Below are positions 36,063 through 38,151 of a stretch of DNA of 64,000 bases, in pieces. How positions within the stretch are numbered: the stretch's first letter is position 1; each line of letters begins with the position of its first letter. Position numbers and translations under genes: made by a program. The DNA comes from Escherichia coli (lineage in GTDB: Bacteria > Pseudomonadota > Gammaproteobacteria > Enterobacterales > Enterobacteriaceae). The stretch lies in NCBI RefSeq assembly GCF_045037415.1, contig NZ_CP173438.1; one strand, 5' to 3'. A model generated the notes under the pieces. That model ran no database searches. It saw nothing but the letters and a program-made list of their open reading frames with translations, and had not been told where the DNA came from.

Positions 36063-36070
36063 AATTCCAG

Positions 36071-36100
36071 AAAGACGCTGAAAAGCGTCTTTTTTCGTTT
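36071..36100 (+). terminator. Intrinsic terminator after leuU
   Basis: AGACGCTGAAAAGCGTCTTTTTTCGTTTT. Confidence 0.75.
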
Positions 36101-36518
36101 TGGTCCTGGTCTGAGGAATGGTTGTCAGGTATCTGTATCTCGTCCAGTTGTTTTACTCGTAGCTGGTACCTTGAAACGATGGTGCCGGTATGCCTTAGTT
36201 ATAAGCTTTTCCCTTCTGCTGACATAATTGGCACTTTATTGTGTCAACTCCATTTCCGGTACGAATACGGATATGTTTACTTCTCGATAAACCATCCTGC
36301 CCCTGTCAGTATAACTACTGATGGCTACGTTCTGCGTAATGTTTAGAGACGCATTGATAATGTTATTTAATTACTGAGAACGCAATGGCCGCATCATTTA
36401 AAAAGAAAAAATCTAGCAGTGTTTCGGTCTGATATGGATTAGAGTTGAAAAACATGTCTGATATAAAATTGAACATTGTTGATAATTGTTTATATTGGTT
36501 GTGAACTTGGATTTCTGG

Positions 36519-38144
36519 ATGACAGTATTCAACAAATTTGTTAAAAGTTTTAAATCTCATTGGTTGTTGTATCTTTGTGTTATTATTTTTGGTATTACGA
36601 ACTTAGTCGCTTCTTCCGGAGCGCATATGGTTCAGCGATTGCTGTTCTTCGTTCTGACCATCCTGGTTGTTAAACGTATACCATCCCTTCCGCTTCGCCT
36701 GCTTATTGCCGCACCATTTGTGTTACTGACTGCGGCAGATATGAGTATTAGCCTCTATTCATGGTGTATCTTTGGTACAACTTTCAATGATGGATTTGCG
36801 ATTAGTGTGCTGCAGAGTGATCCGGATGAAGTTGTCAAAATGCTGGGAATGTATATCCCTTATCTATGTGCTTTTGCCTTTTTATCCCTTCTTTTTTTGG
36901 CAGTAATAATAAAATATGATGTTTCCTTGCCGACAAAAAAAGTGACAGGAATATTATTGCTGATTGTCATTTCGGGCAGTTTATTTTCCGCTTGTCAATT
37001 TGCTTATAAAGATGCAAAAAATAAAGAGGCGTTCAGTCCATATATACTAGCGTCGCGATTTGCTACCTATACGCCGTTTTTCAATCTCAATTATTTTGCT
37101 TTAGCAGCGAAAGAGCATCAAAGATTACTCTCAATTGCAAACACGGTGCCGTATTTTCAATTATCAGTCAGGGATACAGGTATTGATACCTACGTGTTGA
37201 TTGTGGGGGAGTCTGTACGTGTCGACAATATGTCTTTGTATGGATATACACACTCTACGACACCGCAAGTCGAAGCACAAAGAAAGCAGATCAAACTGTT
37301 TAATCAAGCAATAAGCGGTGCACCTTACACTGCGCTGTCGGTTCCCCTTTCTTTAACTGCTGATTCTGTTTTGAGTCATGACATTCATAATTATCCGGAC
37401 AACATTATTAATATGGCTAATCAAGCAGGATTTCAGACTTTCTGGCTAAGCTCGCAATCCGCTTTTCGGCAGAATGGTACAGCAGTTACCAGTATCGCCA
37501 TGCGCGCCATGGAAACAGTCTATGTCAGAGGATTTGATGAATTGTTGTTGCCGCATTTATCGCAAGCGTTACAGCAAAAGACGCAGCAAAAGAAACTGAT
37601 TGTTCTTCATTTAAATGGAAGCCATGAACCGGCTTGTAGCGCCTATCCGCAATCCAGCGCTGTGTTTCAACCGCAGGACGATCAGGATGCCTGCTATGAC
37701 AACTCCATTCATTACACAGATAGTTTGCTAGGTCAGGTTTTTGAATTATTAAAAGATCGCCGCGCCTCGGTCATGTATTTTGCCGACCACGGCCTGGAAC
37801 GCGACCCTACGAAGAAGAACGTCTATTTTCATGGAGGCAGGGAGGCTAGCCAGCAGGCATATCATGTCCCTATGTTTATCTGGTATAGCCCCGTTCTTGG
37901 GGATGGCGTGGATCGCACAACGGAAAACAACATCTTTTCGACAGCTTACAATAATTACATTATTAATGCGTGGATGGGGGTAACAAAGCCGGAACAGCCG
38001 CAAACGCTTGAGGAAGTGATTGCACACTATAAAGGAGACTCGCGGGTTGTGGATGCAAACCATGATGTTTTCGATTATGTGATGCTCAGAAAGGAGTTTA
38101 CAGAGGATAATCAAGGTAACCCCACCCCTGAAGGGCAGGGTTGA
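36519..38144 (+). CDS. yhbX: Inner-membrane phosphoethanolamine-transferase-like (EptA/sulfatase family) protein YhbX
   Basis: ORF 36486-38144 trimmed to MTVFNKFVKSFKSHWLLYL (541 aa). N-terminal TM helices plus C-terminal sulfatase-type domain. The gene and upstream spacer are visibly AT-rich compared with flanking genes. Confidence 0.85.
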   Translation: MTVFNKFVKSFKSHWLLYLCVIIFGITNLVASSGAHMVQRLLFFVLTILVVKRIPSLPLRLLIAAPFVLLTAADMSISLYSWCIFGTTFNDGFAISVLQSDPDEVVKMLGMYIPYLCAFAFLSLLFLAVIIKYDVSLPTKKVTGILLLIVISGSLFSACQFAYKDAKNKEAFSPYILASRFATYTPFFNLNYFALAAKEHQRLLSIANTVPYFQLSVRDTGIDTYVLIVGESVRVDNMSLYGYTHSTTPQVEAQRKQIKLFNQAISGAPYTALSVPLSLTADSVLSHDIHNYPDNIINMANQAGFQTFWLSSQSAFRQNGTAVTSIAMRAMETVYVRGFDELLLPHLSQALQQKTQQKKLIVLHLNGSHEPACSAYPQSSAVFQPQDDQDACYDNSIHYTDSLLGQVFELLKDRRASVMYFADHGLERDPTKKNVYFHGGREASQQAYHVPMFIWYSPVLGDGVDRTTENNIFSTAYNNYIINAWMGVTKPEQPQTLEEVIAHYKGDSRVVDANHDVFDYVMLRKEFTEDNQGNPTPEGQG

Positions 38145-38151
38145 TGTCGAA

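Follow-up and report, generated by a model that had tools for sequence, protein, structure and literature searches.

The leuU–argG junction

The window, that is, the whole 64-kb stretch of Escherichia coli DNA that was analysed, includes a variable junction between the tRNA gene leuU and argG, which is occupied by the gene yhbX. The features of this junction (window coordinates, strand) are the following:

35976..36062, + strand: leuU, tRNA-Leu(GAG), found by ARAGORN and by the Rfam tRNA model (52.8 bits); a conserved gene that anchors the variable junction on its left side
36069..36094, + strand: intrinsic terminator of secG-leuU, found by terminator scan as an inverted repeat; sequence AAGACGCTGAAAAGCGTCTTTTTT
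36101..36518, + strand: AT-rich leader of the putative insert, a non-coding spacer with GC down to 0.335–0.365
36519..38144, + strand: yhbX coding sequence, 541 aa, ATG start (RefSeq annotation of identical DNA)
36564..37004, + strand: membrane domain at the N-terminus (five hydrophobic helices), where the coding sequence is richest in AT
37188..37916, + strand: periplasmic catalytic domain (aa 224–466), predicted alkaline-phosphatase/sulfatase fold
38118..38142, − strand: GC-rich hairpin AACCCUGCCC-UUCA-GGGGUGGGGUU of the argG transcript, within the last yhbX codons
38152..39495, − strand: argG (annotation), conserved right anchor

The spacer between the end of leuU (36062) and the start of yhbX (36519) is exactly 456 nt, as given in the first-pass annotation, and on the other side 7 nt separate the yhbX stop codon from the end of argG, the two genes lying on opposite strands. 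Both flanks are conserved: leuU is 90–98% identical across the other Enterobacteriaceae loci compared, ArgG shows 94–97% identity to other Enterobacteriaceae, and the secG-leuU terminator AAGACGCTGAAAAGCGTCTTTTTT is common to every Enterobacteriaceae locus compared and to both alleles of the junction found in E. coli. The left edge of the putative insert is at ~36100, where similarity to the other genera and to the second E. coli allele, which carries a helix-turn-helix (HTH) gene, comes to an end, and the divergence from the other genera begins past ...CTTTTTTCGT. The right edge is the argG stop codon, or lies within a few nucleotides of it, and the DNA directly past this stop in the yhbX allele is unrelated to that of all other alleles compared.

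The spacer is 97.4–99.8% identical across five E. coli lineages, which differ by indels of 1, 2 and 6 nt, and therefore it is not coding; this applies also to the 74-aa ORF with a TTG start at 36122–36346. A structured RNA was likewise dismissed, since an Rfam search of 35400–40200 (E ≤ 1) gave no match between leuU and argG, the only matches above the gathering score in this interval being two tRNAs and the rimP leader. Promoter-like sites, with sigma-70-like hexamers, are present at 36458–36496. In the spacer, three alleles of which were scanned, no box for PmrA, PhoP, PhoB or RcsB was convincing, and the matches all carry 2–3 mismatches, as expected of AT-rich DNA; in this respect yhbX is unlike regulated LPS-modifying genes. 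The spacer also has no similarity to P4 integrase or to the DNA upstream of the island-borne yhbX paralogue described below.

At the argG end, Citrobacter, Kluyvera, Superficieibacter and the HTH allele of E. coli have the canonical terminator AAGGCCGC...GCGGCCTTTTTT. The yhbX allele lacks it, and there the hairpin in the last yhbX codons occupies the place of this missing ancestral terminator. The fold of 38085–38154 (− strand) has a good stem of 11 bp (−18.5 kcal/mol), but the U tract is missing and z is only −1.7, so that we rejected the hairpin as a canonical argG terminator and regard it as, at best, a non-canonical stop. The argG-yhbX pair has been listed as an excludon (PMC12288877).

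Base composition and codon usage

In a sliding GC analysis, 36063–38150 is the lowest-GC stretch of 2088 nt in the window (0.418, against a mean of 0.517 with a standard deviation of 0.024; the whole-window GC is 0.519), and the minimum for a stretch of 456 nt (0.349) starts at 36151. The GC content is 0.386 in the spacer and 0.427 in yhbX, where it amounts to 0.389 in the N-terminal half (36519–37300) and 0.462 in the C-terminal half, and values of 0.335–0.41 extend across 36200–37400, against 0.52 for the window. Of the 62 genes of the window yhbX ranks at the bottom in GC (z = −3.8), that is, 3.8 standard deviations under the remaining genes, other membrane genes included, which bears out the claim that the spacer and yhbX are more AT-rich than the genes on either side.

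Codon usage points the same way. GC1 of yhbX is the second lowest among the 62 genes (z = −2.5), GC3 (0.419, z = −2.6) ties with that of the ribosomal gene rpmA for the lowest, and the CAI, for which the window's own highly expressed genes were taken as the reference set, is the minimum (0.375, z = −1.8), while the codon-usage distance is the largest among window genes of at least 250 codons. With both the lowest GC and the lowest CAI, the gene can be distinguished from its flanks; its composition is a clear outlier, and its codon usage is at the low extreme, less dramatically. In the half that encodes the membrane domain, part of the AT-richness could come from amino-acid composition and low expression, and not from origin. 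In the laboratory yhbX is probably expressed at a low level, as DNA this rich in A and T is the kind that H-NS typically targets, and argG transcription enters from the other side. The stretch 36200–37400 has the AT-richness of H-NS-silenced foreign DNA, and there is no H-NS study among the main-text literature matches for yhbX.

Presence and absence of yhbX at the junction

To compare the junction between genera, ArgG-anchored loci were taken from genome contigs and screened by tblastn and blastn. The sample consists of the ArgG matches listed, and the loci of E. coli, E. albertii, E. fergusonii, Salmonella and Klebsiella are not among them. The order nusA-rimP-metY-argG-leuU-secG-glmM is kept in 15 other Enterobacteriaceae genomes among these matches, which comprise Citrobacter youngae, C. 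werkmanii, two Pluralibacter, Kluyvera, Phytobacter, Superficieibacter and four Enterobacter, together with Pseudocitrobacter, Escherichia sp. ESNIH1, RIT691 and a metagenome-assembled genome under the label Proteobacteria with the same gene order. A tblastn search of the whole locus found no relative of YhbX at or near leuU-argG in any of the 15 syntenic genomes listed. The gap measures 117–568 nt in 10 of them and holds two terminators, with or without REP-like repeats, and in the other five it holds unrelated cargo of 1.7–8.4 kb, among which no integrase was found.

Within E. coli, the yhbX segment is present in 5178 of 5426 complete genomes (95%), and an unrelated HTH gene is found at the junction in 237 of them; the two alleles were counted separately, and their mutual exclusivity is deduced from the totals. 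Both have the first 42 nt past leuU in common, and the protein of the HTH allele gave only generic helix-turn-helix matches against PADLOC and NCBIfam. The gene is thus not universal at this locus, being absent from all 15 junctions listed and with another gene in its place in 237 E. coli genomes, and the leuU-argG gap is a hot spot of gene turnover between two convergent terminators, with two alternative alleles in E. coli.

The gene is intact in five divergent E. coli lineages, with dS of 0.04–0.075 and dN/dS of 0.06–0.24, and is ~2% diverged between K-12-like, O157 and the window's own lineage, in agreement with the earlier proposal that any acquisition is old.

YhbX as a member of the EptA family

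The Pfam domain PF00884 (Sulfatase) covers residues 224–466 of YhbX (E = 3.8e-55). Hydrophobic helices are found at residues ~16–34, 41–59, 61–79, 113–131 and 144–162 by Kyte-Doolittle analysis, and the AF2 model (pLDDT 91.7) has helices at 2–31, 34–52, 57–85, 102–132 and 137–167; the Pfam EptA_B_N membrane-domain model gave no match in YhbX. The top structural matches of the AF2 model are 5fgn, 6a82 and 9nww, and the periplasmic domain has target-normalised TM-scores of 0.73–0.78 with 6a82, 4kav and 5ylc. Sequence matches in the PDB include EcEptC (E = 4.3e-23) and NmEptA (5.2e-23), and residues 41–460 of YhbX align to full-length NmEptA.

The residues of interest in the catalytic domain, taken from the translation, are E231, T271 (codon ACT, 37329–37331), H369, D423, H424 and H438, plus C373 and C392. 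T271 corresponds to position 280 of 5fgn (Thr280 of NmEptA) in an ungapped stretch of the alignment, E231, D423, H424 and H438 align by count with E240, D452, H453 and H465 of NmEptA, and the counterpart of H369 is the His in the NmEptA GSH motif. By this alignment YhbX has the catalytic threonine nucleophile, the Glu, Asp and His that bind zinc, and two more histidines of the active site. In 38 members of the subfamily E231, T271, H369, D423 and H424 do not vary, and H438 is kept in at least 90%. The assignment to the EptA family made in the first-pass annotation is well founded, given PF00884, the fold match and the presence of the six EptA catalytic and metal-binding residues; with the Thr and the metal ligands retained, and with purifying selection acting on the gene, there is no sign of a remnant. 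Judged from its sequence, yhbX is an intact, selected enzyme gene and not a relic.

YhbX would then be an inner-membrane enzyme with five helices and a periplasmic zinc-dependent domain of the alkaline-phosphatase fold. By the chemistry of the EptA/MCR-1 family, Thr271 would accept phosphoethanolamine covalently from phosphatidylethanolamine and donate it to an envelope acceptor; no report of phosphoethanolamine transfer by YhbX was found in the literature searched.

Among solved structures, the best sequence match to YhbX is EptC/CptA of E. coli (5zzu, 6a82), which transfers phosphoethanolamine to the phosphorylated heptose I of the LPS core, and which is also the best match of the periplasmic domain (target-normalised TM-score of 0.78). 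Its architecture and catalytic residues are as in YhbX, but the identity is only ~22%, and eptC is a core gene, whereas yhbX appears to be an insert of a patchy subfamily. NmEptA (5fgn) and MCR-1 (9nww) are the top full-length fold matches, membrane domain included, with identities of 17–20% and scores far under the EptA and MCR cut-offs; MCR-1 confers colistin resistance, whereas no link to polymyxin resistance is on record for YhbX. Another family member, OpgE (YbiP) of E. coli, whose acceptor is the soluble periplasmic glucans, has ~30% identity to the YhbX catalytic domain (tblastn), but the catalytic half alone aligns (48% of the query) and opgE is a core gene, unlike yhbX. With the NCBIfam models YhbX scores 141 bits for the CptA subfamily (cut-off 404), 117 and 87 bits for EptA (561 and 660), 105 bits for EptB (493) and 31–69 bits for the MCR models (1075–1250). 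These scores place YhbX outside the orthologues of EptA, EptB and CptA/EptC; with its 141 bits against a cut-off of 404 it is taken as a paralogue of CptA.

A small and mobile subfamily

Relatives of YhbX were collected in a search of 1.84 billion representative sequences, followed by a profile of the distant matches. As a direct query YhbX retrieved at least 120 near-identical E. coli entries, and only 118 clusters were found at E ≤ 1e-30 among the 1.84 billion representatives. The nearest full-length clusters are 40–46% identical to YhbX and a truncated cluster of 429 aa is 48% identical, the two closest cluster representatives coming from metagenomic contigs of 3 kb, too short to be informative on genomic context. 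Members of the subfamily are found in Cronobacter, Enterobacter, Citrobacter, Kosakonia, Leclercia, Lelliottia, Buttiauxella, Mixta and Providencia, and on few contigs in Salmonella. In two of the 12 genomic contexts examined, those of Cronobacter and Enterobacter kobei, the gene is inside the waa LPS-core locus, and these relatives are 37% identical to YhbX. Two other contexts adjoin icd, one of them, in Citrobacter freundii, beside a gene of the htrL/yibB type (HtrL_YibB), and two contexts are mobile or defence islands.

The closest relative found is an island-borne paralogue with 64–65% amino acid identity, which 455 of the 5426 E. coli genomes have at tRNA-Phe, adjacent to a P4-type integrase. 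It is of similar length, aligns to residues 14–530 of the 541 of YhbX, and shows 68% DNA identity across 1384 nt of coding sequence. This gene is accessory, adjoins the integrase and tRNA-Phe and is in opposite orientation to the tRNA, whereas yhbX at leuU is free of island machinery and close to fixation in the species. It belongs to the 'YjgX or YhbX' transferases carried by pheU, pheV and selC islands (PMC6174562). Lpt6 of Neisseria meningitidis, a transferase that puts phosphoethanolamine on O-6 of heptose II, is encoded on a genetic island that can be exchanged and that some strains lack (PMC10525099); its evolutionary pattern is that of YhbX, to which it can be likened by lifestyle only. 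Overall, the YhbX subfamily is small, patchy and mobile, and separate from EptA, EptB and EptC. The label 'phosphate starvation-inducible protein PsiE' that some records bear is taken here as a mis-annotation, the protein being a sulfatase-fold transferase and no Pho box having been found.

Possible acceptors

The known acceptors are lipid A for EptA, Kdo for EptB and the heptose I phosphate for CptA/EptC. For YhbX, our best guess, which we hold at somewhat short of even odds, is a site in the LPS core or in lipid A-core, since the protein is orthologous to none of EptA, EptB and EptC, its subfamily is mobile, and relatives occur in waa and htrL/yibB contexts. The waa-locus genes of Cronobacter and E. 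kobei give hints of an LPS acceptor, and the acceptor may differ between YhbX and these relatives of 37% identity. That the substrate of YhbX is undefined, as stated in the first-pass annotation, is consistent with the literature, in which no function was established for yhbX in 2014 (PMC4013655) and a 2023 review with eleven classes of these enzymes omits YhbX (PMC10525099).

An active YhbX whose acceptor is not LPS, and might instead be glucans, enterobacterial common antigen, a capsule or O-antigen unit, cellulose or a periplasmic protein, is a minority reading that has to be taken seriously. The family also acts on glucans (OpgE), cellulose (BcsG), pilin (PptA) and a flagellar rod protein (CjEptC) (PMC10525099), 10 of the 12 subfamily contexts are not LPS loci, and the three known LPS sites of E. 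coli K-12 are already served by enzymes. Weighing against it are the waa-locus gene in Cronobacter and E. kobei, the htrL/yibB-type neighbour in C. freundii, and the fact that the best-scoring NCBIfam models are LPS-modifying, though all of these scores are weak.

Origin of the yhbX segment

The yhbX segment combines a deviant composition with variable presence, as genomic islands do, and these properties support the earlier proposal that it is acquired DNA. The best explanation overall, to which we give a probability of about 0.7, is an old insertion of a single foreign gene carrying a working enzyme of the EptA/EptC/MCR kind. This insertion of foreign AT-rich DNA would correspond to ~36101–38148 and would date from before the split of the E. 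coli lineages sampled. Comparison with the other alleles shows that all that lay between the leuU terminator and the argG stop has been replaced, the ancestral terminator of argG with it. The leuU-argG gap holds differing cargo across the Enterobacteriaceae, and even within E. coli, and an illegitimate insertion, or else an exchange by homology in the conserved flanks, seems a likelier route than an integrase cutting in the tRNA.

The position of yhbX next to a tRNA gene had been read as a classic site of acquisition, and of this reading the acquired origin stands, but not the classical tRNA-integrating island. The foreign DNA starts ~38 nt past the tRNA, beyond the leuU terminator and not inside the tRNA. 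As the first-pass annotation had noted, there is no integrase ORF between leuU and argG and no attachment-site duplicate, since no direct repeat involves 35976–36062 and the 3′ end of leuU is not repeated. A tblastn search with P4-type integrase against 36000–38200, spacer included, detected no remnant (best E = 1.9), and the 65-aa ORF found upstream of the integrase in the pheV island has no tblastn match in the same interval. It is still conceivable that the segment is the stranded remnant of an island inserted at leuU by a P4-type integrase, with the integrase and att sites since decayed: yhbX is 456 nt from a tRNA, its 64–65% identical paralogue has such an integrase as its neighbour at tRNA-Phe (455 E. 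coli genomes), and pheU, pheV and selC islands bear such transferases (PMC6174562). We consider this unlikely, given the lack of these traces, the unrelated gap cargoes of other genera, which are also devoid of integrase, and the gene order at pheV, where tRNA (+) and integrase (+) are followed by the paralogue (−), whereas yhbX is co-directional with leuU.

That YhbX has decayed into inactivity, or is a membrane protein with no enzymatic role, appears very improbable. PbgA/YejM has the same fold, senses LPS and transfers no group, and it appears among the fold matches of YhbX (ranks 23–25 and 28); in addition, no phenotype or product of YhbX is on record, and K-12 knock-outs are viable and appear in scattered screens only. 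However, the six EptA catalytic and metal-binding residues are present and conserved in the 38 subfamily members, the dN/dS of 0.06–0.24 indicates selection, EptA, EptC and MCR-1 fit far better than PbgA (E = 1e-21 versus 8e-14), and the rmsd of PbgA to the YhbX model is 16.6 Å. Finally, an ancestral enterobacterial gene that was lost repeatedly elsewhere, its AT-richness being that of a weakly expressed membrane protein, would suit the near-universal presence of yhbX in E. coli (95%) under purifying selection, its only moderate codon-usage deviation (CAI z = −1.8) and the low CAI of the poorly expressed membrane genes yrbG and yhbE of the window, but this is largely refuted, and the least probable of all, since the junction is without yhbX in 15 of the 15 other genomes listed, from roughly ten genera, the 'empty' junctions keep conserved terminators and not deletion scars, Enterobacter sp. 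Bisph1 and C. werkmanii carry a relative elsewhere while their junctions are empty, relatives are 37–48% identical between genera whose ArgG is 94–97% identical, and the GC of yhbX is 3.8 standard deviations under that of the other genes, membrane genes included.

Implications

yhbX is already a known E. coli gene and not a new kind, and the findings are mildly informative and do not overturn the current understanding. It is one of five phosphoethanolamine-transferase paralogues of E. coli K-12, the sole one without an assigned product, in a family that includes the MCR colistin-resistance enzymes. The context added here, of a selected enzyme from a small mobile subfamily with LPS-core and integrase neighbourhoods, narrows the search for this product, and leuU-argG is documented as a turnover hot spot with two E. 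coli alleles.

More tentatively, and on balance doubtfully, the subfamily of YhbX could form a class of phosphoethanolamine transferases of its own, mobile by horizontal transfer and with an acceptor site unserved by EptA, EptB, EptC and OpgE, that would have spread with P4-type tRNA islands and LPS-core loci. If this were true, the acceptor would be, for example, an extra LPS-core position or another surface glycan, and the gene would travel in first place among the cargo of P4-type tRNA islands, and in LPS-core loci, because surface remodelling pays off against phages, complement or cationic peptides; E. coli would have fixed the copy at leuU-argG, and would still be trading a second one at pheV.

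Composition of the leuU–argG interval

Some E. coli chromosomes match the 4.1 kb around yhbX at 100% identity, most others at 97.5–98%, and over its whole length the window corresponds to the stretch from gltB to lpoA in strain Esc21. The interval has the following layout.

Features around yhbX (window positions)
35976–36062, leuU, tRNA-Leu(GAG)
456 nt, spacer between leuU and yhbX
36519–38144, yhbX, annotated gene
7 nt between the stop codons of yhbX and argG, the two genes being convergent
38152–39495, argG, convergent to yhbX

The first-pass annotation had described the spacer and yhbX as AT-rich, with an AT-rich codon choice, and both descriptions were confirmed. 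Against 0.519 for the window, the GC content drops to 0.386 for the spacer and 0.427 for yhbX, and AT-richness peaks in the spacer and in the membrane-domain half of yhbX. No other 2088-nt stretch of the 64-kb window is as low in GC as the segment 36063–38150, and the lowest 456-nt stretch begins at 36151. Of the 62 annotated genes of the window, yhbX ranks last in GC (z = -3.8), in GC3 (0.419, jointly with rpmA) and in adaptation index (0.375, z = -1.8, with the window's own translation-machinery genes as reference), and its codon-usage distance is the largest among the long genes. The second most AT-rich spot in the window is the gltB–yhcC intergenic region (3676–4250, GC ~0.37 over 456 nt). 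Beyond argG, the rimP leader RNA (Rfam RF01770, 102 bits) is found at 40008–40108, downstream of tRNA-Met, as expected for the operon, and infB (42118–44790) is longer by 24 nt (8 codons) than in the otherwise near-identical Esc21, whose infB ends at locus position 44766.

YhbX has an EptA-type architecture and active site

YhbX contains a single Pfam Sulfatase-family domain (residues 224–466), preceded by five hydrophobic helices. The closest solved structures by sequence are the periplasmic domain of E. coli EptC and full-length Neisseria meningitidis EptA, at E about 5e-23; Campylobacter EptC and MCR-1/2 come next. An AlphaFold model, built with 38 subfamily sequences as input, is confident (pLDDT 91.7, pTM 0.90), and its top structural matches are EptA (5fgn), EptC (6a82) and full-length MCR-1 (9nww), with which YhbX shares the arrangement of five helices and a catalytic domain. 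In ungapped parts of the alignment, EptA positions 240, 280, 452, 453 and 465, which are the zinc ligands, the threonine nucleophile and one accessory histidine, correspond to YhbX E231, T271, D423, H424 and H438, and H369 aligns with the histidine of the EptA GSH motif, presumably the second accessory histidine, His383. All six YhbX residues vary little or not at all among subfamily members. The earlier assignment to the EptA superfamily stands, with the threonine and the metal-site residues of an EptA-type active site all present. Against the NCBI models for EptA, EptB, CptA and all MCR families, YhbX scores far under the curated thresholds; it is a member of the family and not an orthologue of any characterised enzyme. 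By analogy with the family, the periplasmic domain would remove phosphoethanolamine from phosphatidylethanolamine with the help of Thr271 and zinc, and would then pass it to an acceptor in the envelope.

YhbX belongs to a mobile subfamily

A search of 1.84 billion cluster representatives retrieved only 118 clusters for the YhbX subfamily (E <= 1e-30), the nearest full-length ones being 40–46% identical to YhbX and one shortened cluster (429 aa) 48% identical. In a profile search of the distant clusters, the named members are scattered over Enterobacterales: all Cronobacter species listed, Enterobacter kobei, E. cloacae and E. hormaechei, several Citrobacter, Kosakonia, Leclercia, Lelliottia, Buttiauxella, Mixta and Providencia, and Salmonella on only few contigs. 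Twelve genomic contexts were examined in all, taking the pheV island as one. Where the genome has a GC content of about 50% or higher, the subfamily gene usually exceeds the flanking genes in AT content.

Genomic contexts of subfamily genes
Cronobacter dublinensis and E. kobei (waa-locus loci L086/L087, 8001–9581): within the waa LPS-core locus, with tdh-kbl-hldD-waaF-waaC on one side and waaL or glycosyltransferase genes on the other
Kosakonia and Citrobacter freundii: adjoining icd, with an HtrL/YibB-family gene immediately before the subfamily gene in C. freundii
Citrobacter sp.: inside a CP4-like mobile island
Salmonella: inside a type VI secretion and defence island
Mixta, Providencia and Buttiauxella: assorted variable regions
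Two copies: metagenomic contigs of about 3 kb
One copy: 62-kb E. coli plasmid record
Two copies: E. coli pheV island

The two waa loci and the htrL-type neighbour hint that the acceptor of YhbX might lie on the LPS core or lipid A-core. We hold this suggestion, drawn from gene neighbourhood, tentatively and at somewhat less than even odds, as only two contexts are LPS loci, one more has the htrL-type neighbour, and the proteins concerned are only 37% identical to YhbX. In the literature consulted we found no function assigned to the waa-locus gene of C. dublinensis and E. kobei. An acceptor other than LPS is a serious possibility.

The closest relative of YhbX is a paralogue of E. coli itself (557 aa, 64–65% identity), first met on the 62-kb record labelled as a plasmid; 455 of the 5426 complete E. 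coli genomes carry it. It directly adjoins a P4-type integrase and the tRNA-Phe of the pheV site, towards yqgA-speC-nupG-mltC-mutY (locus L103: paralogue 9001–10674, integrase 10771–12033, tRNA-Phe 12231–12306; also L104, L105 and L102). This shows that the subfamily travels as mobile island cargo; it stands apart from the characterised enzymes. About 1400 further E. coli genomes carry only a 100-nt fragment at 83–86% identity, possibly a yjgX-type pseudogene remnant.

The leuU–argG junction is a hot spot of gene turnover

Because the junction itself was to be sampled, the species-representative genome collection was scanned with ArgG, and the loci were then screened with YhbX, SecG, GlmM, RimP, NusA and the two tRNAs. 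Among the matches listed, the order nusA-rimP-metY-argG-leuU-secG-glmM is kept in 15 Enterobacteriaceae genomes, and none of the 15 has a YhbX-like sequence in the 10-kb flanks. In ten of them the argG–leuU gap measures only 117–568 nt and is made up of two terminators, that of leuU and the canonical one of argG (AAGGCCGC...GCGGCCTTTTTT), with REP-like repeats in some cases. The other five (two Pluralibacter, Kluyvera, Escherichia sp. ESNIH1 and RIT691) carry mutually unrelated cargo of 1.7–8.4 kb, most of it more AT-rich than argG, which includes a 1372-aa ORF in Pluralibacter gergoviae and several ORFs with signal-peptide-like starts in other genomes.

Cargo in the argG–leuU gap (ArgG-anchored loci)
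L006, 11333–19725
L007, 9065–11859
L008, 11342–13083
L014, 11333–14920
L026, 11330–14634

No integrase was found in these five filled gaps, nor does any integrase-sized ORF stand out. With ten short gaps and five holding unrelated cargo, the argG–leuU gap is a hot spot of gene turnover, in which the empty state is the commonest. Citrobacter werkmanii and Enterobacter sp. Bisph1 have an empty junction but are among the species with a subfamily member, whose copy must therefore lie elsewhere. In two Citrobacter species (L004, 10932–14804; L005, 11970–15840), secG and glmM, one gene further on than the junction, are separated by a 3.9-kb insertion. Its three long ORFs measure roughly 300, 400 and 530 aa, and the start of the first resembles that of a LysR-type regulator.

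On the left, the similarity of E. coli to other genera ends just past the leuU terminator, at ~36100, and it returns only at the argG stop codon. Given the pheV paralogue beside its integrase, it is attractive to see yhbX as the leftover of a decayed integrase island at leuU. However, the insert begins beyond the tRNA terminator, the orientation of the gene relative to the tRNA differs between the two sites, and the leuU-yhbX-argG region contains neither an integrase ORF or remnant nor an attachment-site repeat of the tRNA end, as had already been noticed on first reading. Vertical inheritance with repeated loss elsewhere is contradicted by the relocation and high divergence of the relatives, by the deviant composition of yhbX, and by the empty junctions of the genomes listed, which are clean and bear terminators. 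The earlier reading of yhbX as an acquired gene, in turn, is upheld by this composition, by the lack of a syntenic relative among the matches listed and by the existence of an alternative allele in E. coli.

Age and maintenance of yhbX in E. coli

The insert (36100–38145) is found in 5178 of the 5426 complete E. coli genomes, and in 237 it is replaced by an unrelated 1.2-kb segment coding, on the minus strand, for a 317-aa protein with an N-terminal helix-turn-helix motif (L001, E. coli OkiPb01700, 3638–4591). This protein gave only generic helix-turn-helix matches against PADLOC and NCBIfam. Its copies differ little, 229 of the 237 reaching 99% identity or more. The two alleles have in common only the first 42 nt after leuU, and the helix-turn-helix allele retains the ancestral argG terminator, so a simple insertion into the yhbX allele cannot have produced it.

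yhbX is intact in the lineage of the window, in K-12-like and O157 strains and in two further lineages, and the window copy is identical to that of the ST131-like strain FDN-4. Across these five lineages the synonymous divergence is 0.04–0.075 and dN/dS is 0.06–0.24, which indicates that the insertion is old within E. coli, as first proposed, and that selection maintains the gene. The idea that YhbX is an inactive, PbgA-like protein is contradicted by these dN/dS values and by the residue conservation. IS1 elements lie in or beside yhbX in strains GN03590, 1448 and KMi006 (nucleotide matches H1, H28 and H52), so these backgrounds, at least, can do without the gene.

Expression and significance

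At the convergent gene ends of the yhbX allele (38118–38154) the ancestral argG terminator is missing, and in its place a GC-rich hairpin without a U tract lies inside the last yhbX codons. With the stop codons so close, the canonical terminator absent and only this hairpin left, argG transcripts probably run antisense into yhbX, which fits the listing of argG–yhbX among the overlapping convergent transcription pairs (excludon; PMC12288877). On general grounds, argG transcription may interfere with yhbX expression, and binding of H-NS to the AT-rich leader may keep this expression low.

The literature consulted that mentions yhbX assigns it no function, and the gene is not mentioned in a 2023 review of eleven classes of such enzymes (PMC10525099), in line with the initial remark that its substrate is undefined. 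The gene appears in scattered screens, a genomic SELEX peak falls within the spacer, and the spacer has served as a neutral insertion site for markers; the screens and the peak do not add up to a function.

yhbX is already annotated, and its family is known. The present comparison shows it as a single gene of foreign, AT-rich DNA inserted at a hot spot of turnover, intact and under selection, with EptA-type architecture and active site. The comparative picture, that is the hot spot, the alternative allele, the island paralogue and the relatives in LPS loci, would be no surprise to a specialist, and provides useful context for this gene.
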